DNA of 64,000 nt from NCBI GenBank assembly GCA_016187225.1, contig JACPKC010000002.1:3387-67386 (forward strand). The letters run 5' to 3'. A program made the position numbers and the translations under genes. The notes below the pieces were generated by a model. The model made no database searches and was not told where the DNA came from. It saw nothing but the letters and a program-made list of their open reading frames with translations. Source of the DNA: Candidatus Berkelbacteria bacterium. GTDB lineage: Bacteria; Patescibacteriota; UBA1384; JACPKC01. This document shows, one piece after another, positions 2,210 to 13,800 of this stretch. Position 1 is the first letter of the stretch. Each line of letters opens with the position of its first letter.

Positions 2210-2258
2210 AGCTTTTTTATCGGCCTGTCAGCGTGTGTCTGTAGGCCGGTTTTTTATT
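2210..2258. terminator. bidirectional rho-independent terminator between convergent genes
   Basis: CGGCCTGTCAGCGTGTGTCTGTAGGCCG hairpin (2221-2248) flanked by AGCTTTTTTAT upstream and GTTTTTTATT downstream. Confidence 0.5.
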
Positions 2259-3474
2259 CTGGAACGAAAACAGTCCAGACGCGGCCATTGTCGTCCGGCA
2301 CCGCATCTTGATAAAGCTCTTCACCCGTACTGGCATTTTTGATCGTAACCGGCAGATCCGGTGGTAATTGAAGTGTAGCCGTGCCACTGCTATTCGTTAT
2401 CACTTCATCGATTTTTTGCCCGCCAGTATAGATTTCAAGGAGTTGATTAGGTTCAGTTTGATTCGTGTTTTTATTATTAGTAGTGATTAGCGTTAGACTC
2501 ACTGTCTGGCGCGTGTGATCAAGTGTCACCTTACTTTCCTTGCCTTCTTCAACAAAGGCGGGACTAATAAGATTACCCTCTTCGTCGTAGATATCGACCT
2601 CGCCGGGTGCGACTTCCTCAACCGTGTCTTGTCCATTGGAGTCGGTGATGACTTCGTGAACAACGTCGGACTTGCGTTCCTTAACGCGCAATTTTACAGC
2701 CGGCGCCCCACTCTTGAGTTGAATCTTAACTTTTCCCGCCTTAATACTGGGCGTTGCCCCGCCGCCGCCAACACTGACTTGATTCCCGCCAGGGCTTAAA
2801 TCGACGTTGGAGCTCCCGGGTGAGATCGAAGGTGTAATATCGGGCGCGTTGAAAGTGGTATCGGCGACGCCTAGAACCTGGAGAATATAAATTCCGATTG
2901 GCCACGCGAGAACAACGAGAGCAATGCCAATGACCGATTCAGTCAGCATGCTTTTTGCGGCCTTGCTTTGCGTGTCGTCGCCGGCGGCTGTGAGATAGCG
3001 AATCCCGCTTCCCAAAAAAAGAATCATAAAAATTACCGTGGCGGCGATTACGACCAGATTCCAGATTTTTGGAAAAGACGTACCGATATCATGGAAAATT
3101 GGGGGCAAGCTTTCGGGCGGTTCGAGGGCGAGCCCGACATTACCTTCTTGGCCAGTTTGTGTTGCCCCGCCCCCAGCGCTTTCACCGGAAAGTTTTTGCA
3201 TTATATTACCTAGAGTACCCTTTACGCCTTCTACCGCATCATTAATCCCTTTACCAGTGTTTTTAGGTATTTGCCCAAGTGATTTTAAGCTATCGTTAAT
3301 TGATTCCAAGATGGCGCTAGAGCCATCTTTAGCGTCAGCGGGTTCTGTTTTTCCAGCCGCACCACTTTCCCCCCCGGGGTCATCTCCAGCCTGGACTGTC
3401 GATATCGAGAATATCGGGGAAAATACAAAAACAAAGAAGAGTAAGCAATAATAAATAAAACAATAACTCTTCAC
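2254..3474 (-). CDS. secreted protein with long Gly/Ser-rich ectodomain and C-terminal two-helix VirB2/TrbC-pilin-like hairpin (paralog 1 of array)
   Basis: Signal peptide MKSYCFIYYCLLFFVFVFSPIFSISTVQA. Hairpin IWNLVVIAATVIFMILFLGSGIRYLTAAGDDTQSKAAKSMLTESVIGIALVVLAWPIGIYIL shares the motif YLxxAG(D/N)xxxxKxAK...aw..G with five downstream paralogs. Confidence 0.55.
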   Translation of the reverse strand: MKSYCFIYYCLLFFVFVFSPIFSISTVQAGDDPGGESGAAGKTEPADAKDGSSAILESINDSLKSLGQIPKNTGKGINDAVEGVKGTLGNIMQKLSGESAGGGATQTGQEGNVGLALEPPESLPPIFHDIGTSFPKIWNLVVIAATVIFMILFLGSGIRYLTAAGDDTQSKAAKSMLTESVIGIALVVLAWPIGIYILQVLGVADTTFNAPDITPSISPGSSNVDLSPGGNQVSVGGGGATPSIKAGKVKIQLKSGAPAVKLRVKERKSDVVHEVITDSNGQDTVEEVAPGEVDIYDEEGNLISPAFVEEGKESKVTLDHTRQTVSLTLITTNNKNTNQTEPNQLLEIYTGGQKIDEVITNSSGTATLQLPPDLPVTIKNASTGEELYQDAVPDDNGRVWTVFVPE

Positions 3475-3499: not shown

Positions 3500-3895
3500 T
3501 TACTCAACCGTTGTGGGGATGCTGTCGCTTGTCACGCCTTCGATTCCCAAGAGACGCAGAACATAGGTGCCAACTGCCCAGGCGGTTACCACGAGCACCA
3601 AGCCAACCACGGCGTCGAGCATGAGCGCCCGCGCTTTTTTCACCTGCTCTTCATTGCCGGAAGAGGCAAGATACATAATGCCGCCAACCAGAAAAAGAAT
3701 TACAAACACCACGCCCGCTACGATGATGGCGATATCGAAGATGGATTCGATTGTGCCTTCAAAAGTCGTGAATTTATTCGGAATTTTATCGGGTTGTTCG
3801 ATCGTTTGCCCAAAGGCAACCGCCGGCATGGCCCAGCTCGAAACAGCTAAAATCTTGACTAAACTTTCCCTCTGTCGCATTAACCAGACTGTCAT
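3500..3895 (-). CDS. VirB2/TrbC-pilin-like small membrane protein (paralog 2)
   Basis: 131 aa: signal peptide, then IAIIVAGVVFVILFLVGGIMYLASSGNEEQVKKARALMLDAVVGLVLVVTAWAVGTYVL (TM-loop-TM). Confidence 0.6.
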   Translation of the reverse strand: MTVWLMRQRESLVKILAVSSWAMPAVAFGQTIEQPDKIPNKFTTFEGTIESIFDIAIIVAGVVFVILFLVGGIMYLASSGNEEQVKKARALMLDAVVGLVLVVTAWAVGTYVLRLLGIEGVTSDSIPTTVE

Positions 3896-3922
3896 AAATC
3901 CTCCTTTGATAAATATATATAT

Positions 3923-4244
3923 TTAGCCGCCGATATCGATTGAACCAATCCCAAGCAAACCCAAAACGTAGTTGCCCACGGCCCACGCAATCACAATAAT
4001 CACCATCCCGATCACGGCATCAATTAAAAGCTGTTTGGCTTTTTTAGTTTGTTCATCGTTACCCGCATTAGTTAAGTACATTATCTGGCGGATCAATATT
4101 TTGCAAAACTTGCCCGCCACCGCTGGCGCTTTCGCCTGTCGACTTCACACTTGGCGCGCCTGGCGCAGTCTTAGCCGCTTTCGCCAAAACGAGTGACGGC
4201 GCAAGAAACACAATTAATGAAATTAAGGAAATAAATTTTCGCAT
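3923..4244 (-). pseudogene. frameshifted or truncated copy of the paralog at 5976..6605 (signal-peptide ORF and C-terminal pilin-like ORF in different frames)
   Basis: Reverse ATG at 4244 encodes signal peptide MRKFISLISLIVFLAPSLVLAKAAKT... and stops after 59 codons. In another frame, 3923..4120 encodes MYLTNAGNDEQTKKAKQLLIDAVIGMVIIVIAWAVGNYVLGLLGI, identical to the C-terminus of the 5976..6605 product. Confidence 0.5.
3943..4083. repeat. about 140-bp segment identical to 5991..6130 (pilin-paralog C-terminal module)
   Basis: Direct string match AACCAATCCCAAGCAAACCCAAAACGTAGTTGCCCACGGCCCACGCAATCACAATAATCACCATCCCGATCACGGCATCAATTAAAAGCTGTTTGGC...GTTAAGTACATTA present at both loci. Confidence 0.85.
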
Positions 4245-4259
4245 AGCCCTCCAGCCTAT

Positions 4260-4580
4260 TTATTGAATGCCCAGATCAAGTTTGCCCGCCTCGCCAATGC
4301 CGAGGAGTTGCAAGATATATGTGCCTATCGCCCAGGCAATCACGACAATAATCAAACCCACGATCGCATCCACCAACAGTTTTTTGGCTTTATTCGTGTT
4401 TTCCTCGTTGCCGGCGGCCACAAGATACTGAATGCCGCCAATTAAAAAAAGCAGAACGAAAATCACCCCGGCCAAAGTGATGCCGATGTTAAAAAAAGCG
4501 CTGATCGCGTCCGAGATATTGGTAAATTCCGTGCCACGTAATTTATTTGGCGTATCGACGCTTTGGGCGAGTTGAATCAT
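4260..4580 (-). CDS. VirB2/TrbC-pilin-like small membrane protein (paralog 3, no obvious signal peptide)
   Basis: 106 aa: ITLAGVIFVLLFLIGGIQYLVAAGNEENTNKAKKLLVDAIVGLIIVVIAWAIGTYIL. Confidence 0.6.
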   Translation of the reverse strand: MIQLAQSVDTPNKLRGTEFTNISDAISAFFNIGITLAGVIFVLLFLIGGIQYLVAAGNEENTNKAKKLLVDAIVGLIIVVIAWAIGTYILQLLGIGEAGKLDLGIQ

Positions 4581-4670
4581 TTTTCTTGCCTCTATAAGTT
4601 TATAATGCCACTATACCATACTCGTTTCGTCGAGCGTATTTCTCCACAGAGGTGGTGAATTGCCAGTGTC

Positions 4671-5117
4671 CTAGGGTTCCAACTTAATCGCGTCCGGCAG
4701 TATGAACGAGGCGGCGAGAAATTTGAGAAACATATAGGAGCCAAAGACCACGCCGATACCGAGTAAAGTATATAAGATGCCCATTTTAGCCGCTTGTGCT
4801 TGAGTGGCGTTTCCACTCGAGGTAACAAGCTTGTAGCCATTTAAGATCAGAAAAATCAGGGCGATTGCCAGAACAAACCTAATCATTGCGTTCGCGATCG
4901 CTTTCAAAAATATCATAATATTTTCAAAGGTTTGTTCTTTTGGGTCGCTAACAATGCTCCAGTCGATACCAAAAAGATTTTGATCAGCGGCGTGCGTAAG
5001 TTGAGGAATGAGAAAAACGGCAAAAAGAAAAATTAAGCCTATCAAGAAGGTTTTTGACTGAACACGTTTTACCAGTTGGTAGGTTTTGGTTCGCAATGAC
5101 ATTTTTTCCTCACTCAA
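4671..5117 (-). CDS. VirB2/TrbC-pilin-like membrane protein (paralog 4, divergent)
   Basis: 148 aa. Signal peptide ends ...LTHA. Two C-terminal helices around TSSGNATQAQAAKM. Confidence 0.5.
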   Translation of the reverse strand: MSEEKMSLRTKTYQLVKRVQSKTFLIGLIFLFAVFLIPQLTHAADQNLFGIDWSIVSDPKEQTFENIMIFLKAIANAMIRFVLAIALIFLILNGYKLVTSSGNATQAQAAKMGILYTLLGIGVVFGSYMFLKFLAASFILPDAIKLEP

Positions 5118-5979
5118 TAAAGCGTTTTAAGACTTCGAGAATACCATAAGCGGTGAGCACAACGACGGCGCCCATAATTGCAAACAACATGCCGTTTTTA
5201 GCTTCTTTAGTCGCATCGGTATCGCCAGCGCCCAAAAGATAGCGGAAAGCATTTATCATAAAGAAAACCAGCGTTACCAGGCCAAGAAGAATGATCAAGA
5301 TGTTGGGGATGCTCGAAGTGACTAGGGTTTCAATCGAATCGACGTTTAAAACACTTTTCAAATCTATCTCGCTGATTGGCGTGATAACTACCTTCGGGCT
5401 GGGTGGAAGAGTTGTGCCCTTACTGCTCCCGCCCAGGCCGCCGTTTCTGCTACTACCTCCGCCGCCCCCACTCCCACCACTTCCTCCATCAGCCCCCCCG
5501 CCAGTCCACGGAAACTGCCAGCCGTTACCAGACCCGCCATCAATCCCATTATTAAGATCTGATTCCGTAAACAGATCATCATTTGGACCATCGTCAAACC
5601 ACCAGCGGCTATAATCATCATCTGTCATTTCCCAATCATTGTCGCCATCGTTGCTTCCTACGCCGCTCTCGCTCCCAGATCCGCCATCAATTCCATATTC
5701 AAAAGGCAATCTTACGTTGTCATCATTGCCCGTGTACCAGCTGTTATCTTGATTCGGAACATCGTCAAACCATGAGCGATTATCATCTTGATCGGCAGAA
5801 GAAAATCCACCACTATTGTCCTCATTATATGGCAAGTACCAGCCGTTATATGGGTTAAATGAAGCTTGAATTGGAAAGCGAATGTTGGAATAGACAAATG
5901 CGCTTACTCCAACCAAGCCAGTCAAGCCGAGGATGAATAGTCGAAGCTTAATTTTTTTATTGAGAGAGAATTTTTTCAT
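5110..5979 (-). CDS. secreted protein with Asp/Trp/Gly-rich low-complexity ectodomain and C-terminal pilin-like hairpin (paralog 5)
   Basis: Signal peptide MKKFSLNKKIKLRLFILGLTGLVGVSAFVYS. Repeats of the type WFDDxPN..W and a (GGS)n run. C-terminus FRYLLGAGDTDATKEAKNGMLFAIMGAVVVLTAYGIL. Confidence 0.6.
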   Translation of the reverse strand: MKKFSLNKKIKLRLFILGLTGLVGVSAFVYSNIRFPIQASFNPYNGWYLPYNEDNSGGFSSADQDDNRSWFDDVPNQDNSWYTGNDDNVRLPFEYGIDGGSGSESGVGSNDGDNDWEMTDDDYSRWWFDDGPNDDLFTESDLNNGIDGGSGNGWQFPWTGGGADGGSGGSGGGGGSSRNGGLGGSSKGTTLPPSPKVVITPISEIDLKSVLNVDSIETLVTSSIPNILIILLGLVTLVFFMINAFRYLLGAGDTDATKEAKNGMLFAIMGAVVVLTAYGILEVLKRFIE

Positions 5980-6605
5980 AAACTAATTAAACCAATCCCA
6001 AGCAAACCCAAAACGTAGTTGCCCACGGCCCACGCAATCACAATAATCACCATCCCGATCACGGCATCAATTAAAAGCTGTTTGGCTTTTTTAGTTTGTT
6101 CATCGTTACCCGCATTAGTTAAGTACATTACGCTTTGAAAACTGGAACCTAGATCTGGCGCACCAATTTGAAGGATTGCGTTCCCACCAGTGCCACTTGT
6201 TCCACCACCATTGCTACCACCATTTGAATTTGCGCCGCCACTCGCGGCTTTATTAGGTGATCCACCTGACGAGGAACCGTTTTGAGCTAAAAGCCCTCCT
6301 TGCTGACGAATTTCATCAAGGCCTGGCGCCGGGTCTACGTCATCGGGGCGGCTAAGTGGCCTAAGTTCATTCCTACCGAGCGAGGTGTTGGTAAGACCCC
6401 CGTTAAATTCGGCGTCAATTTTATCTTGCGCATCCCCGCCCTCACTAATCATTCCACCATCAACCCAAGCTGGGGATTGAACTGGATCAGCTGAAGCGGT
6501 AAAACTAATTTTAGAGTAAGCAAAGGCGCTGGCGCTGATTAGACCCGTCAGTCCGAGGGCAAAAAGTCGAAGCTTAATTTTTTTGTTGAGATAAATTTTT
6601 TTCAT
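5976..6605 (-). CDS. secreted protein with Gly/Ser/Asn-rich ectodomain and C-terminal pilin-like hairpin (paralog 6)
   Basis: Signal peptide MKKIYLNKKIKLRLFALGLTGLISASAFAYS is nearly identical to that of paralog 5. C-terminus MYLTNAGNDEQTKKAKQLLIDAVIGMVIIVIAWAVGNYVL. A 4-nt overlap with the upstream gene start suggests translational coupling. Confidence 0.6.
   Translation of the reverse strand: MKKIYLNKKIKLRLFALGLTGLISASAFAYSKISFTASADPVQSPAWVDGGMISEGGDAQDKIDAEFNGGLTNTSLGRNELRPLSRPDDVDPAPGLDEIRQQGGLLAQNGSSSGGSPNKAASGGANSNGGSNGGGTSGTGGNAILQIGAPDLGSSFQSVMYLTNAGNDEQTKKAKQLLIDAVIGMVIIVIAWAVGNYVLGLLGIGLISL
5991..6130. repeat. second copy of the about 140-bp identical segment (see 3943..4083)
   Basis: Direct string match. 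Confidence 0.85.
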
Positions 6606-6651
6606 ATCAAAGATTGTTGTATCGTTTTGTCTCCTCGCGATAATAAATCAC

Positions 6652-8052
6652 TCACTCACCCTGTAAAATGGCAGAAATTTTTTGAGCCGCTTCTTCAATG
6701 GCATTTTGTGGCGCCTGACTCTTGGTGCCCACGCGTTGAATTAAGTCGCGGAAAATTGTGTCAACTTTGTCGGGACGTTTCGTTTTATACCAACTCTTTG
6801 CCGTCTGTTGCTGATATGCAAACGGATTACCGCTCTCGCCTCGATCTAAAACGGTGGGCGGTTCTTCTTCGGGTTTAGGATCAGGCCGTTTTGTTGCCGA
6901 ACGATAAGGATTACCGCGCTCAATCACCAAATTTTTTAACACCTCCCAGGCTAGAGTGGGATTTTTGGTATTTTTTGTGACCGTTTCAATATAGTACGAA
7001 GCATAGTCGACCGGCGTATCGATGTCGCGCACCTGCGGCAGAGGTATGGATGAATATTTGAGTGTCGGCGCGAGCTGGTTAAAGATTAGTTCGTAGTATT
7101 GAAAGCCAAAAATCATCGCCGCCTTGCCTTCAATAAAAGCCTGAACATCGCCTGGCATAGAGGTGTTCCAGGAATAGTAAGATTTGGCTGGATCGGCAAA
7201 ACCGGTAAAGCGTTCTAATGCCTCTGTGCCCTTGAAAACAGTTTGGCCAACGGCATTTTTAACGCCTAAATGAAAGCTTGCGTTGGTGTGCTCGGGCGAA
7301 ACCATCTCGGCGCCGTTTTGGAGCATGAGCGCGTAGACAACGTCTTCGGCGCGCGAAATGTTGTTGGCGGTGCCGGCGGCGAGACCAGAGACGCTAATAC
7401 TCCCATCGGGATTTTTTTCAGTGAGAAGTTCAACCGCGCGCTGGAGCTTGTCGTAGGTATTGAGCGGATCGCGGAGCAAGTCAGCCTCTTCATCGCGGTC
7501 GACATCTTCGAGTTCAGAGATTTTTTTGTTGAAAACGGCGGTGTTTTTCCAGATGCCGAGGGTGTCAACATAGTAAGGCAAGCCATAAATGCTTCCATCG
7601 TACACCACATCTTGCGTAACGACCGGGGCAAACAGGGCTTTGAGGGCATCTTCATCGGTTTGATTGCTGTTTTTACCGAGGAGACCATTGGGCATCGGGA
7701 CGAGTTTATTCTTGTGTCGCGGAAGCCAATCGTTACGGATCGACCAAATATCCGGCCCCTCGCCCGCGGCGAGCGCTTCAGCGGTAGTCAGTTCGAACTC
7801 GCTCGCGCTCATGAGTGTGTATTCAAGTGTGATCGCGGGATTGTCGCGCTCGAACTCCTCGATAATCGGTTCAAAAACCTCGGCGCTATCAAAGGTGCGC
7901 CAGATCTTGAGCGTGACTGGTTCGGTTTGGCCAGCGATGCCGCTACTTTGACTGCTTGAAGATTTCCGGCCGATACAGCCAGTTAAGAGTATTGGAATCA
8001 AGGCAAGCGCTAAAGCTCGCCCAAACCATTTAATTGGAGTTTTCTGACTCAC
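6652..8052 (-). CDS. ABC-transporter-type extracellular solute-binding lipoprotein (sugar-binding family 1-like)
   Basis: Lipobox LLTGC after MSQKTPIKWFGRALALALIPI. Body KIWRTFDSAEVFEPIIEEFERDNPAITLEY...GLPYYVDTLGIWKN is typical of SBP_bac_1 proteins. No permease gene adjacent. Confidence 0.65.
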   Translation of the reverse strand: MSQKTPIKWFGRALALALIPILLTGCIGRKSSSSQSSGIAGQTEPVTLKIWRTFDSAEVFEPIIEEFERDNPAITLEYTLMSASEFELTTAEALAAGEGPDIWSIRNDWLPRHKNKLVPMPNGLLGKNSNQTDEDALKALFAPVVTQDVVYDGSIYGLPYYVDTLGIWKNTAVFNKKISELEDVDRDEEADLLRDPLNTYDKLQRAVELLTEKNPDGSISVSGLAAGTANNISRAEDVVYALMLQNGAEMVSPEHTNASFHLGVKNAVGQTVFKGTEALERFTGFADPAKSYYSWNTSMPGDVQAFIEGKAAMIFGFQYYELIFNQLAPTLKYSSIPLPQVRDIDTPVDYASYYIETVTKNTKNPTLAWEVLKNLVIERGNPYRSATKRPDPKPEEEPPTVLDRGESGNPFAYQQQTAKSWYKTKRPDKVDTIFRDLIQRVGTKSQAPQNAIEEAAQKISAILQGE

Positions 8053-8080: not shown

Positions 8081-8959
8081 TCACGCGCGCAGAACTTTAA
8101 TGAGAAACTCACGAAACTCTGCTTTGAGATCTTCGCGTTTGAGAGCGAATTCAACAACGGTTTTCAGGTACTCCAATTTATTGCCGGTGTCATAGTAGCG
8201 GCCGCCGGCGATCTCTCGAACATAAGCTTTCCGTTTTTTACTCAAAGCATCGATCGCATTGGCAAGAAAAATCTCGTTGCCGTGACCGGGGCGGGTGTGC
8301 TCAAGCTCAGTAAAAATGTCCGGCGTTAGCACATAACAACCATCGGCTAAAAGATCAGAAGGCGCTTCATTGGGCAACGGTTTTTCGACCAAACGATTCA
8401 AGATTGAAGTGTGCGGCGTTCTGGTTGGAGTGATGTCAAAAATTCCATAGCGGCTGGCATCCTCTTCTCGGGCAAGTTTGACGCCTGACAGAACCGGCTC
8501 GCCGAACTCTTGAAATGTTTCCAAGCACTGTTTCAGCCTTGGAGTTTCCGCCCAGGTAAATTGATCACCCCAAAGAACGGCAAACGGTTCGTCGCCAATC
8601 ACATGTCGAGCGTTCAAAACCGGTGTGCCGTTGCCGTAAGGACCTTTTTGGCGAATGTAGACAAAATTAGCCATCTCGGCGATTCGGCGCACCTCTTCGA
8701 TTTGGCTCTGTTTCTCGGCTGCTTCGAGACGTTTTTCCAGCTCGAATGGATAATCGAAGTGATCTTCAATCGAGCGTTTATGCCAGCCAGTGACGATAAT
8801 AATGTCTTCGATGCCCGAGGCGACAGCCTCTTCCACGACATATTGAATGACTGGTTTATCAACAACCGGAAGCATCTCTTTTGGCATTGCCTTGGTGGCG
8901 GGTAAAAAACGAGTTCCAAATCCTGCCGCCGGAATGACGGCTTTGCGAACCTTGGCCAT
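8081..8959 (-). CDS. galU: UTP--glucose-1-phosphate uridylyltransferase
   Basis: MAKVRKAVIPAAGFGTRFLPATKAMPKEMLPVVDKPVIQYVVEEAVASGIEDIIIVTG is the canonical GalU N-terminus. Length 292 aa. Confidence 0.9.
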   Translation of the reverse strand: MAKVRKAVIPAAGFGTRFLPATKAMPKEMLPVVDKPVIQYVVEEAVASGIEDIIIVTGWHKRSIEDHFDYPFELEKRLEAAEKQSQIEEVRRIAEMANFVYIRQKGPYGNGTPVLNARHVIGDEPFAVLWGDQFTWAETPRLKQCLETFQEFGEPVLSGVKLAREEDASRYGIFDITPTRTPHTSILNRLVEKPLPNEAPSDLLADGCYVLTPDIFTELEHTRPGHGNEIFLANAIDALSKKRKAYVREIAGGRYYDTGNKLEYLKTVVEFALKREDLKAEFREFLIKVLRA

Positions 8960-8971
8960 AACACCTCTTCA

Positions 8972-9367
8972 CTAGCGCGTTTTAATTGTCAGACGGCGCG
9001 CGCGAGTCTTGGTAAGTTTGGGAATTGTGATTGTGAGAATGCCGTTTTTAAGGTCGGCGTTGGCGTTGTCGGCATCCACCGAGGTGGGCAGAACATACGA
9101 CCGCGAAAATGAACCCCAGTAACACTCTTGAACGAAATAGTTTTCACGTGTAATCGTATCGCCAAACTGGCGTTCGCCTTTGATCGTGACCATGTCGTCG
9201 GTGATGGCAATGTCGAGGTTTTCAGGCAAAACACCAGCAATTGGCGCCTTAATAACCACCGAGTCTTCAGTTTGATAGGCGTCGATTGCCAATTGCCCGC
9301 CGCTATCTTCTTCCAACCAGTCGTCGCTGGCCACATCCGTAGTTTGTTTGTCTGTCATTAAACCCAT
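8972..9367 (-). CDS. Hsp20/alpha-crystallin family small heat-shock protein
   Basis: Alpha-crystallin domain: AIDAYQTEDSVVIKAPIAGVLPENLDIAI...GSFSRSYVLPTSVDADNANADLKNGILTITIPK. Confidence 0.85.
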   Translation of the reverse strand: MGLMTDKQTTDVASDDWLEEDSGGQLAIDAYQTEDSVVIKAPIAGVLPENLDIAITDDMVTIKGERQFGDTITRENYFVQECYWGSFSRSYVLPTSVDADNANADLKNGILTITIPKLTKTRARRLTIKTR

Positions 9368-9422: not shown

Positions 9423-10124
9423 TTAGGGCGCTTCATCATAGGCGAGGGTAAGAGCGGCGCGTTCGCGAAAGCCAGCTTGGGCAAGACAGCGAGCGGCTTC
9501 GGCAAGAGTGGCGCCAGTAGTGCAAATATCATCGATCAGTAAAACAGGCCCTTGAATTTCAGGGCCTGTCCATTTAAAAACGCCGCTCACATTTTTTTGC
9601 CGCTCGCGGCGCGAAAGCCCAACTTGACTCCGCGTTTCTTGGATTCGCTGAAGTTGAGTCCTGACAGGTATGTGAGTTAACTCGGAGAGGGCGCGAGCAA
9701 GTAGAAAAGCTTGATTATAACCACGGGATCGCAAACGCTGGGGGCTGATTGGGATTGGAATGAGCGCCGACCAAGACGTGTGTTTAAGAATAGTTTGCCA
9801 ACGACTATATGCATGAGCCGCAAACTCGTCGAAGGCGGCCGAGAGCCCCTGATATTTTAACTTGTGGAGAGCGCGTTTCAGGGGTTGTTTTTGGTAACTC
9901 CCGAAACAGCCAAGCGCCTTGAGGTTCAGAGATTGTTGGTGCGTTTTGCACAGCGCGTTCGGCGCGAACGTAGTTCGTCGACAAATCTGGCATTGAGTTG
10001 GCGAGAGCGAGAGCGCGCTTTCATGAATACAAGTTTTGCAAAACCAATTTCCTCGTCGCTGGCAACCTAGACAAAAGGTTGGGCAGAGACAATCTCCAAT
10101 TTCATTAAAAATAAGTTTAAGCAT
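9423..10124 (-). CDS. comFC: ComF-family protein (ComFC-like phosphoribosyltransferase with N-terminal Cys-rich zinc finger)
   Basis: CxxC...CxxC pairs at the N-terminus. PRTase motif VLLIDDICTTGATLAEAARCL. Confidence 0.75.
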   Translation of the reverse strand: MLKLIFNEIGDCLCPTFCLGCQRRGNWFCKTCIHESALSLSPTQCQICRRTTFAPNALCKTHQQSLNLKALGCFGSYQKQPLKRALHKLKYQGLSAAFDEFAAHAYSRWQTILKHTSWSALIPIPISPQRLRSRGYNQAFLLARALSELTHIPVRTQLQRIQETRSQVGLSRRERQKNVSGVFKWTGPEIQGPVLLIDDICTTGATLAEAARCLAQAGFRERAALTLAYDEAP

Positions 10125-10843: not shown

Positions 10844-13800
10844 ATGCGTTGGCTCGACCGAGCGATCATATTTTTTTCTGCACTCTTGAGCGCAGTCTTG
10901 ATGGTAATTCCGCAAAGTGTTGCGGCGGTTGATTTTAATTCTTCAAATATTATTTCCAACAGTGAGTTTATCGATACAAATTCAATGACCGCGCCGGAAA
11001 TTCAGCGTTTCTTGGAAGACCGGGGCGGTTTTTTAAAAGATTTTACAGAAAACGGCCGCTCGGCCGCGCAAATCATTTACGATGCCTCTCACGGTTACGG
11101 TGATGCTTCGGGCGCGATCAACGGCATCGCGCTGACAACGAGTACCGGCACGGTGAGTCCGAAAGTGATCCTGGTCACCCTTCAAAAAGAGCAAAGTCTG
11201 CTGACAATGACATCCCAAAACGACAGCGCCTTGCGGGCGGCGATGGGCTATGCTTGTCCGGATTCGGGCGGGTGTAACTCTAACTATGCTGGTTTTACCA
11301 AGCAAGTTGAGAACGGCGCTTGGCAGTTGCGCTATAACTATGAGCGTTCACAGGCTACAGGCTTTGGCGATTATCAAGTGGGTCAATCATTTTGTTTTGA
11401 CGATTTTAACGGCACTAACTGCGGCACATATGAAAATCGCGCCACCGCCGCGCTCTACCGCTACACGCCGCATGTTTATAATGGGAACTACAATTTCCAT
11501 AATCTCTACTACAACACCTACAACTTCACTGGGCCGGAGTTCGCGGCGACCCTAATTTCTTGGTCAAGTTCGGCTGGGCTTTATCAGTATCCTTCGGTAA
11601 GCAGTGGTCAGGATGCCACCTTGCAGGTCACACTGCGAAATATGGGGCGCACGACTTGGCAAAGAGGGGCGGTGAATTTAGGCACGGAACAGAATCGCGA
11701 CCGCATCACCGGTTTCAATCGTGGAACGGGCTGGCGATCAGGAAATCGAGTTTCGTTGGTTGAAGTCTCGGTTGCGCCGGGTGAAAATGGCACCTTTAAT
11801 TTTGTGGTTTCGCCGCCTTATTCTCTTCAAAGCGGCACTTATCGAGAACACTTCCGCCTCGTGGCCGATGGCATCAGCTGGTTTGGGCCAGAGTTATTCT
11901 GGGATATTTCAGTGACGGCGAGTTATCAGGCATCAGTCAGTTCATGGTCAACTTCAAGCGGTTCGCATACTTATCCAAGCGTAACTCGGGGCGGAAATGG
12001 CACAAATATAATTTTGAGAGTTCAAAATACTGGCGCGGCAATTTGGCAGAGAGGGACGGTGAATTTAGGCAGTGATCAGCCGCGCGATCGCGGCACGGGC
12101 TTTTTGCGCGAGTCGGGCACTGGAGTGGCTTCGGGCTGGGTCTCACAGAATCGAATCCAGATGCAAGAGAGTTCAGTCCCGCCTGGTGAAACAGCGACTT
12201 TCTCCTTCTGGCTTCAAGCGCCATCGAATATGCGCCCGGGGACTTACCGAGAACACTATCGTCTGGTGGCGGATGGATTAGATTGGTTCGGACCCGAGTA
12301 CTACTGGGATTTTGATTTTCCTTTGGAGTCAAAACAGATTGCTCTAATTGACGACTCTCCAGCTCGGAAAGTTCAAGTGGGCGAGGAAACCACTCACCAC
12401 TCACCACTCATCACTCACCTGCTTACTTTCAGCGAATCGCCAGATGCGGTAAAACTCGCTTGCGCTCTTAATCTTTCTGAAGATGCGGTCGAAATTAATC
12501 AGGCAACTCAAACCGCTATTATCTCGGGTGAGATTCCTGATTTGAGCAAGCTGGCCGCCGTGTTGCCAACCCTCGAGAGTGTGGAAGCCGATGAGCCAAT
12601 TCGAATCTTCTCAACCCCGAATGACCCCAGGTATAGTAGTCAGGCAACGACTTTCTCGCAAATGAACATGCAAGCCGGCTGGGATTACGTGCAGGGCAAA
12701 ACGAGCGCTGTCATTGCCGTCATTGATACCGGCGTAGACGGAACGCACGAAGATTTAACCGGCAAGGTATTGGCAGGCAGAAATATCTCGGCCAATACCG
12801 CGATCGCGGCTAATACTGACTCGGATGACAATGGGCATGGCACGAATATCGCCGGCATCGCGGCGGCGGGCGGCGATAATTCCATTGGAATGACAGGGGT
12901 TGATTGGCAGGCGCGAATTTTGCCAATCAAAGCTTTCAATAGTGATGGATTGGCAGAGACTTCAGATATCGTTTCGGCGATTGAGTATGCTATTAATCAG
13001 AATGCGACCGTGATTACGATGAGTTTTGGTCGCTCAACACCTTCAGATGCGTTAGAAGCGGCGGTTAATAGCGCCGCCAGTCGCGGCATTCTTCTTGTCG
13101 CGGCGGCTGGCAATACGGGCGAGAGTTCAGTTTACTATCCCGCGGCTTATGAAAATGTGATTGCGGCCGGCGCCGTGCAGGCCGATAATGCTCGTGCCAG
13201 TTTTTCTAATTACGGTAGCGCTCTTGATTTAATGGCGCCGGGTGTTTCAGTAATCGCAACTGCCGACGGCGGGGGGTATGAAGCCGTGAGCGGCACGTCA
13301 TTTGCTGTGCCTTTCATTGCTGGCATCTCAACCTTGGTGAAGGATTTTCATAGTAGCGCCAGTGCGAGTGATGTAACGAGTATTTTAAACTCGACGGCCA
13401 CCAAGGTTAGCGGTATGAACGGCAATCTGCGAACCGATGAATATGGCAACGGTGTTGTGAATTTAGCCGATGCGCTTGTTAGCGCTGGAGACTATCAGGC
13501 TTCGACAATTTCTTGGTCAACCAGTAACGGTTTATTTACCTATCCAACTCTCTCTTTGGGTGGCAGTGGCGCGAATGTCATTCTCACAGTGCGAAATACC
13601 GGTACCTCGCGCTGGTTTCGCGATCTGGTGCATCTAGGCGCCGATCAGCCGCGCGATCGCGGCACGGGCTTTTTGCGCGAGTCGGGCACTGGAGTGGCTT
13701 CGGGCTGGGTCTCACAGAATCGAATCCAGATGCAAGAGAGTTCAGTCCCGCCTGGTGAAACAGCGACTTTCTGGATTAGATTGGTTCGGACCCGAGTACT

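Follow-up and report, generated by a model that had tools for sequence, protein, structure and literature searches.

Results

Two Genes of a Pilin Array Share a Perfect 141-bp Repeat

Contig JACPKC010000002.1 of Candidatus Berkelbacteria bacterium carries, within the 64,000-nucleotide (nt) stretch analyzed here (the window), an array of seven adjacent minus-strand paralogs of the PF18895 "T4SS_pilin" family. Two of them, which we call gene A (∼3923–4244) and gene B (5976–6605), share a stretch of perfect identity, R, that is 141 bp long in a base-by-base comparison (copy 1 at 3943–4083 and copy 2 at 5990–6130, both on the minus strand); a preliminary description of the window had put this duplication at about 140 bp, with the boundary at 5990 placed one base off, at 5991. 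R is the longest exact repeat within the window, and a 60-nt core of it has exactly two occurrences there, against 0 expected from 100 shuffles. A repeat search of the window extends the alignment of the pair to 144/145 identical positions (3939–4083 versus 5986–6130) and finds a third copy, at 60% identity, in a neighboring paralog. The other array members are, as had been described, much more divergent, the best identities to R over 138 coding nt being 62% (the 106-amino-acid [aa] gene), 60% (the 131-aa gene), and 50% (the 406-aa gene). Searched against genome, metagenome, and viral contig collections, a 37–54-nt core of R gave 0 matches.

At its downstream end, R stops at the exact point where the flanks of genes A and B diverge: gene A continues into a C-terminal tail of its own (3923–3942, minus strand, …SIDIGG and stop) that differs from the tail of gene B (5976–5989, minus strand, …LISL and stop), the latter overlapping the start codon of the adjacent 289-aa gene. 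At the upstream end, the window as deposited has no homology between the two genes beyond 4083 and 6130, such that A and B both break at one and the same nucleotide, 141 nt upstream of the divergence of their downstream flanks. The N-terminal part of gene A (4084–4244, minus strand) has an ATG with a Shine-Dalgarno-like GGAGGG directly upstream, a signal peptide, MRKFISLISLIVFLAPSLVLA, and a short Gly/Ser linker, whereas that of gene B (6131–6605, minus strand) has a different signal peptide, MKKIYLNKKIKLRLFALGLTGLISASAFA, and a Gly/Ser/Asn-rich ectodomain of 130 residues; judged by eye from the translations, both leaders look Sec-type. In the window, the signal peptide of A and its R-bearing part lie in different frames, just as had been reported: one minus-strand open reading frame (ORF; 4068–4244) encodes the signal peptide and linker and ends in …DPPDNVLN and a stop codon, and another (3923–4120) reads MYLTNAGNDEQ…GLLGIGSIDIGG to its stop codon in the other frame. 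The 209-aa product of gene B is 100% identical to NCBI HYW32_00100 of Candidatus Berkelbacteria bacterium, which is encoded on a contig of 82,429 bp.

The repeat had been read as encoding the C-terminal hairpin of the protein, but both copies encode the loop and second helix only, MYLTNAGNDEQTKKAKQLLIDAVIGMVIIVIAWAVGNYVLGLLGIG, corresponding to positions ∼31/33–71 of the 71 in the PF18895 profile (33–71 in copy 1, 31–71 in copy 2). R starts at "MYL," the residues with which helix 1 ends in all other members of the family, and no hydrophobic helix precedes it in deposited A or B. Every other array member has helix 1, as does P0002, a homolog that is 41% identical over 44% of B and sits in the same place, beside a solute-binding-protein gene (locus L003). 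The two-helix hairpin of PF18895 is thus lacking from A and B as deposited, both being without helix 1. Against a Pfam gathering score of 26.6 bits for the PF18895 hidden Markov model, which the 131-, 106-, 289-, and 406-aa genes all exceed, the R-bearing ORF of A scores 26.9 bits, just above the cut-off, and B scores 24.6 bits, below it because half of the domain is absent. Gene B (5976–6605), the last array member, looks intact but is therefore likewise damaged.

Independent Assemblies Depart from the Window at Both Joins

Sequence across the two upstream ends of R (4083/4084 and 6130/6131, hereafter joins 1 and 2) is available from Logan, a set of independent k = 31 assemblies in which each 31-mer is distinct by construction (PMC12424806). 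Exact-protein look-up retrieved contigs from runs SRR12113424 and SRR12113420, each matching the window at 100% identity: L002 (SRR12113424, window 3972 to 1), L001 (SRR12113424, in a contig reported in 2 samples, window 6019 to 4082), L004 (SRR12113424, window 12103 to 6130), and L005 (SRR12113420, window 8366 to 6130). The three SRR12113424 contigs cover 3972 + 1938 + 5974 nt (11.9 kb) of the window with zero mismatches and therefore derive from the same population as the window.

The Logan contigs depart from the window at exactly 4082/4083 and 6130, and none of them branches at either join in either run. Beyond 4082, L001, in which the N-terminal part of gene A is identical to the window, runs on for 38 nt that are absent from the window, TCGATGCAAGTTTTCAAAGCGTGCCAAGTATTGTTTCA, and that are read in frame as …DPPDIDASFQSVPSIVS; beyond 6130, L004 and L005 run on for 16 nt that are likewise absent, the continuation being GCCAAGTATTGTTTCA (…SSFQSVPSIVS). 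Translated through the joins, gene A is in frame as …GGGQVLQNIDPPDIDASFQSVPSIVS and gene B as …GAPDLGSSFQSVPSIVS. The frameshift and truncation that had been ascribed to the 3923–4244 copy are consequently, in all likelihood, properties of the window sequence and not of the gene, since the assemblies of two runs read in frame past 4083, and L004 and L005 show the continuation that the apparently intact gene B is missing. One 30-mer, AGTTTTCAAAGCGTGCCAAGTATTGTTTCA, is common to the upstream ends of L001, L004, and L005 and occurs nowhere in the window; at the other end, L001 and L002 open with the final 30 nt of R, from which they proceed into the downstream flanks of B and A, respectively. With a common 30-mer on the way in and the common last 30 nt of R on the way out, two paths enter and two leave a single collapsed repeat, which runs from SFQSV to GLLGIG and of which the window lacks the first part in both copies.

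Direct repeats on either side of 1.9 kb of sequence look much like an assembly-graph cycle, and the k = 31 topology taken alone also permits a path from B-upstream through the repeat to A-downstream together with a separate circle; both features would suit a reading in which there is only one R-bearing gene and a 2-kb unit has been wrongly inserted as a second locus. Yet there are four distinct flanks, each found in independent contigs, L001 physically links B-downstream to A-upstream, the signal peptides and ectodomains of A and B differ, and paired-end scaffolding of the metagenome-assembled genome (MAG) placed the segment between A and B. We therefore regard a spurious second locus as exceedingly unlikely. 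The suspicion of an assembly artefact, voiced as an alternative in the preliminary description, was right for the two upstream junctions, but not in the form of a single locus: each of the two loci is real and has its own flanks at either end, the chimeric elements very probably being the joins.

The sequence between …PSIVS and MYL… can be bounded in length by comparison with the relatives. A and B align gap-free to the intact paralogs when 20 placeholder residues stand for the missing piece, whereas a by-eye match of DLGSSIQTIF… in P0002 to DLGSSFQSV… in B suggests 16 residues instead. We infer that n ≈ 16–20 codons of helix 1 lie there, which would put 38 + 3n nt missing at join 1 and 15 + 3n nt missing at join 2 (roughly 86–98 nt in A and 63–75 nt in B) and gives an estimated full repeat of 169 + 3n = 217–229 bp, essentially the whole Pfam domain. 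Beyond the Logan 30-mer, the missing piece would then comprise another 46–58 nt and is predicted to encode a hydrophobic helix with …GG(I/V/L) at its end, immediately ahead of MYLTNAGN. A loss of 38 + 3n nt always shifts the frame, so that A appears frameshifted, and a loss of 15 + 3n nt always keeps it, so that B appears intact but is without helix 1; this arithmetic reproduces what the window shows. Seen as deletions, the two would have the same downstream end nucleotide and different, non-homologous start points.

Joins across a Longer Repeat Very Probably Explain the Window Sequence

We consider it very probable that the length of R, the frameshift in A, and the missing helix 1 all result from scaffold joins made across a longer genuine repeat of the two pilin genes. 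The default list of k values in MEGAHIT ends at 141, the length of R. In the IDBA source code, a negative estimated gap makes the scaffolder add a contig starting at an offset. Overlaps between MEGAHIT k141 contigs that have a graph node in common measure exactly 141 bp (bioRxiv 10.1101/2023.06.07.544120), and the presumed source study (He et al., 2021; PMC7906910) assembled its groundwater MAGs using the default settings of MEGAHIT v1.2.9, followed by IDBA-UD scaffolding; its list includes Genasci_Feb2018_S35_SO-1_Berkelbacteria_48_23, that is, JACPKC. A perfect repeat of ∼220 bp, longer than both the reads (assumed to be 150 nt) and k = 141, would collapse in a de Bruijn graph, and each of the two outgoing MEGAHIT contigs would begin with the last 141-mer of the repeat, which would make R 141 bp long and have it end at the divergence of the flanks. 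The scaffolder would then butt the incoming contigs onto the outgoing ones with a wrong overlap, and the helix-1 coding sequence would be lost at both joins. The incoming contigs would also have to have been shortened, so far that 14 nt of the repeat head are left in B and that the cut in A lies beyond the start of the repeat; we attribute this to the behavior of the scaffolder at negative gap estimates, the sequence itself being unchecked. Two observations accord with such joins: the duplicated stretch equals k in the pipeline of the presumed source study and abuts the flank divergence, and an independent assembly (L001, L004, and L005) contradicts the joins and supplies sequence that is missing from them. 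Also in line with the joins, an exact look-up found the truncated 58-aa A product in no indexed assembly. Reads clipped on the upstream sides would in that case read …GATATCGATGCAAGTTTTCAAAGCGTGCCAAGTATTGTTTCA… and …GGTTCCAGTTTTCAAAGCGTGCCAAG…. As an aside, a contig from the same study, JACRDK010000025.1, has the scaffold name SR-2_scaffold_141_3681097, where the "141" is consistent with k = 141 contigs being fed to the scaffolder.

Taken at face value, the window would make A a genuine frameshifted and truncated pseudogene that recently duplicated or converted exactly 141 bp with B, and pseudogenized paralogs are common in gene arrays. We hold this to be highly unlikely, as in two independent read sets the frames of A and B both run on into a common sequence that is absent from the window, B is cut at the same nucleotide even though the upstream side of B has no homology to A, and the tract length coincides with the assembler's k. 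Gene conversion would moreover need homology on both sides, which the window does not offer on the upstream side of 4083 or 6130.

The helix-1-less joins might also be real alleles, of a strain with two deletions, with the Logan runs having sampled an undeleted strain. The MAG and the Logan runs may come from different samples, and there is 1–2 nt of microhomology at the joins (TA in A, T in B). Against this, two independent deletions would be needed, with an identical downstream breakpoint exactly k = 141 nt from the repeat end and zero other differences in 11.9 kb; the Logan contigs are unbranched at both joins in two runs, and both products would be left without a helix of the core domain. 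Two real deletions are thus very unlikely. Alleles lacking helix 1 could, in principle, be present at low frequency through a recurrent site-directed deletion that acts as a switch, leaving A frameshifted and B tail-anchored, a state that the MAG would have caught by chance; we regard this as highly improbable.

Several points nevertheless weigh against joins across a collapsed repeat. The simple model expects 141 nt of the repeat head to be retained, whereas the window keeps 14 nt in B and none in A, and to account for the difference one must suppose that the scaffolder trims blindly where its gap estimate is negative. That no reads would span 4083/4084 and 6130/6131 is deduced indirectly, from the unbranched Logan contigs and the lack of a record of the 58-aa product, and low-frequency alleles without the missing piece may have been lost during cleaning of the Logan graph. 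The contig of the collapsed repeat, which would hold the missing piece, is in no searchable collection; a homology search with B in the protein collection returned only B itself and P0002, and no full-length A or B with the missing piece, and an exact look-up gave no record of the 209-aa B product in the indexed assemblies. Finally, runs SRR12113420/24 and HYW32 are tied to PRJNA640378 only via 100% identity, taxon, GC content (48.9% in the window), and accession ranges; neither the runs nor HYW32 were found in the supplements of He et al. (2021), and the run numbers were not found in a literature search. The length and sequence of the missing piece, the exact software step, and the link from the MAG to the pipeline of that study are things that we infer; the repeat, its half-domain content, the departure of the independent assemblies at both joins, and their convergence on one 30-mer are observed directly.

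Scaffold joins across the repeat would resemble, in part, the local errors at repeats in short-read MAGs described by Chen et al. (2020; Genome Res, PMC7111523), who counted 13 in one 1.13-Mb genome of the candidate phyla radiation (CPR), one of them in a repeat-containing gene. Common to both are an unsupported-looking consensus at a repeat within protein-coding CPR genes and, given the pipeline assumed here, IDBA-UD scaffolding, with a repeat length equal to k and an independent assembly that disagrees at the joins. The errors of Chen et al. are unsupported consensus, Ns placed despite an overlap, and wrong repeat numbers, whereas in the present case sequence is lost at the join and there are no Ns. 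For the deposited record, this means that HYW32_00100 (gene B) and the adjacent apparent pseudogene are probably mis-assembled. More generally, scaffold joins inside repeats can mislead analyses of pilin repertoires, pseudogenes, and cassettes in uncurated short-read CPR genomes; a cheap warning sign is any perfect repeat that is exactly as long as the assembler's k.

A further irregularity in the same scaffold lies in an S8 subtilase gene (10844–∼14240, plus strand; PF00082, E = 4e-50) with three repeat units that match PF16158 (Ig-like) where scanned. Units 1 and 3 contain 71 nt that unit 2 lacks at 13772 (compare 12204–12273). Up to this gap the sequence equals unit 1 for 130 nt, and after it for another 40 nt, and the gap is also where the ORF passes into a different frame. 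The drop-out is probably a second local assembly error. We do not count it as a second proven artefact: all surrounding 31-mers are repeated, which makes Logan no test of it, and the simple k = 141 model does not account for flanks of 130 and 40 nt.

The Two Genes Probably Have an Identical Hairpin Domain and Differ in Their N-Terminal Parts

Underneath the joins, A (∼3923–4244) and B (5976–6605) are very probably two complete pilin paralogs with an identical whole hairpin domain, from …SFQSV to …GLLGIG. The contig continuation …SFQSVPSIVS falls at the start of helix 1 as seen in the paralogs and P0002, and the real A and B genes probably have the two-helix hairpin that characterizes PF18895. 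Identity ends abruptly on both sides of the tract, falling from 100% to 60%–67% within 15–45 nt upstream and to only 32% over the next 60 nt downstream. Borders this sharp agree better with gene conversion, or with duplication of the domain alone, than with an ancient duplication of the entire gene, and the shared hairpin would be the product of one of the two former events, of recent date, between paralogs. The earlier suggestion of a very recent duplication or gene conversion is in this respect borne out, for a tract that is longer than had been seen. An identical tract with abrupt borders among otherwise diverged paralogs (at most 62% identity to the others) is what gene conversion, or concerted evolution, of tandem paralogs looks like, with 100% identity within the tract and diverged surroundings; in the present data, a domain-level duplication is indistinguishable from it. 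The biology beneath the artefact is real but unsurprising: two pilin paralogs with different ectodomains and identical membrane hairpins.

In their make-up, the genes resemble other members of PF18895 (TrbC/VirB2-like two-helix pilins), with a signal peptide, a variable ectodomain, and a hairpin bearing the motif YLxxxGNxE…KAK…AWA, and multi-copy arrays like the one of seven paralogs described here are common in Patescibacteria/CPR; where A and B as deposited differ from the family is in having half a domain only, a difference that we attribute to the artefact. Patescibacteria MAGs account for nearly all of the related loci that were recovered. In one array among the 65 such loci from Patescibacteria, from Moraniibacteriota (JAUSGT010000002.1), two adjacent pilin paralogs at 5091–5558 and 5890–6309 have an exact tract of 90 nt in common (5346–5435 = 6097–6186), covering helix 1 and the loop (…FMNWLLGLVGVLAVIAFVISGILYLTAAGNEEQ…). 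Partial homogenization of pilin paralogs is therefore not unique to the Berkelbacteria window. In another related locus, from the chromosome-level MAG OY969576.1, two exact tracts (7431–7557 = 8699–8825, 127 nt, and 7640–7710 = 8908–8978, 71 nt) are common to two adjacent multi-pass membrane proteins of 414 and 410 aa beside a pilin gene, so that conversion-like tracts in tandem paralogs are also seen in a chromosome-level MAG.

A donor-cassette mechanism of antigenic variation had been named as possible. As with Neisseria pilE/pilS, a silent partial pilin copy would then recombine into an expressed gene for antigenic or phase variation; what speaks for it is that the array is pilin-like and contains one apparently defective copy with a perfect tract in common with another. 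The resemblance goes as far as clustered genes named as pilins and recombination between copies. In Neisseria, however, the protein is a type IV pilin, unrelated to the VirB2-like hairpin found here, and the silent copies lack a start codon, promoter, and N terminus, whereas A has its own ATG, SD-like GGAGGG, and signal peptide and is intact and in frame in independent assemblies (L001), B likewise having a start codon and signal peptide of its own. There are, in addition, only two copies of the tract, in place of many cassettes that differ in an exposed region between conserved flanks, and the other paralogs, at most 62% identical, do not form a cassette family. It is the conserved membrane hairpin that is shared and the N-terminal ectodomains that differ, the reverse of what variable-region cassettes do. 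We find a donor-cassette system scarcely credible at this locus.

Two other kinds of element were considered for R and rejected. The pair does not look like the template and variable repeats of a diversity-generating retroelement, the copies being 100% identical with no adenine-specific mismatches and the target being a membrane hairpin (the search for a reverse transcriptase was not exhaustive). Nor does the 141-bp unit look like a mobile cassette: it has two copies only and no terminal inverted repeats, and its boundaries are explained by k and by the divergence of the flanks.

For the homogenized pair itself, ongoing gene conversion may hold the membrane core of the pilins constant as the exposed N-terminal parts drift apart, and the two identical copies of the domain may be able to recombine and loop out the three pilin genes between them.

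The Other Array Members and Their Surroundings

The five remaining paralogs are likewise all on the minus strand. The first (2254–3474, 406 aa; PF18895, E = 3.5e-6, 27.4 bits), which is identical in Logan contig L002, has a signal peptide, a hairpin, and a long C-terminal extension; this extension, of ∼210 residues, is an unusual placement of an ectodomain for the PF18895 family and has weak sub-threshold matches to Ig-like, CarboxypepD_reg, SdrD_B, and related families (E = 0.001–0.09). It is followed at 3500–3895 by a complete paralog of 131 aa with both helices (PF18895, E = 5.9e-10, 39.5 bits, positions 4–71). The three genes between A and B are a complete paralog of 106 aa (4260–4580; PF18895, E = 8.8e-11, 42.2 bits), a divergent pilin-like membrane protein of 148 aa (4671–5117) whose matches to PF18895 (E = 1.7e-4) and DUF6112 (E = 1.6e-4) both fall below the cut-off, and a paralog of 289 aa (5110–5979; PF18895, E = 1e-7, 32.4 bits, positions 3–71) with a full hairpin and an Asp/Gly-rich repetitive ectodomain. 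The ectodomain of this 289-aa protein, rich in Asp, Gly, and Trp, is encoded with internal repeats of ∼147–171 nt; the gene overlaps B by ATGA (stop/start), and the leaders of the two are 74% identical at the DNA level (5875–5980 versus 6501–6606).

On one side, beyond B, the array is bordered by genes for a solute-binding protein, a nucleotidyl-transferase, and an HSP20 protein, the latter two known from Pfam marks on L004. Among the immediate neighbors of the array, to which the scan was confined, there was no ATPase or coupling protein of a type IV secretion system. On the other side, downstream of the array and ∼1.5 kb beyond the start of the window, L002 carries a gene for a PilB-type T2SSE ATPase (3562–5094 of that contig; 510 aa; PF00437, E = 7e-108). 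Within the window, a protein encoded at 9423–10124 has a weak sub-threshold match to a phosphoribosyltransferase domain.

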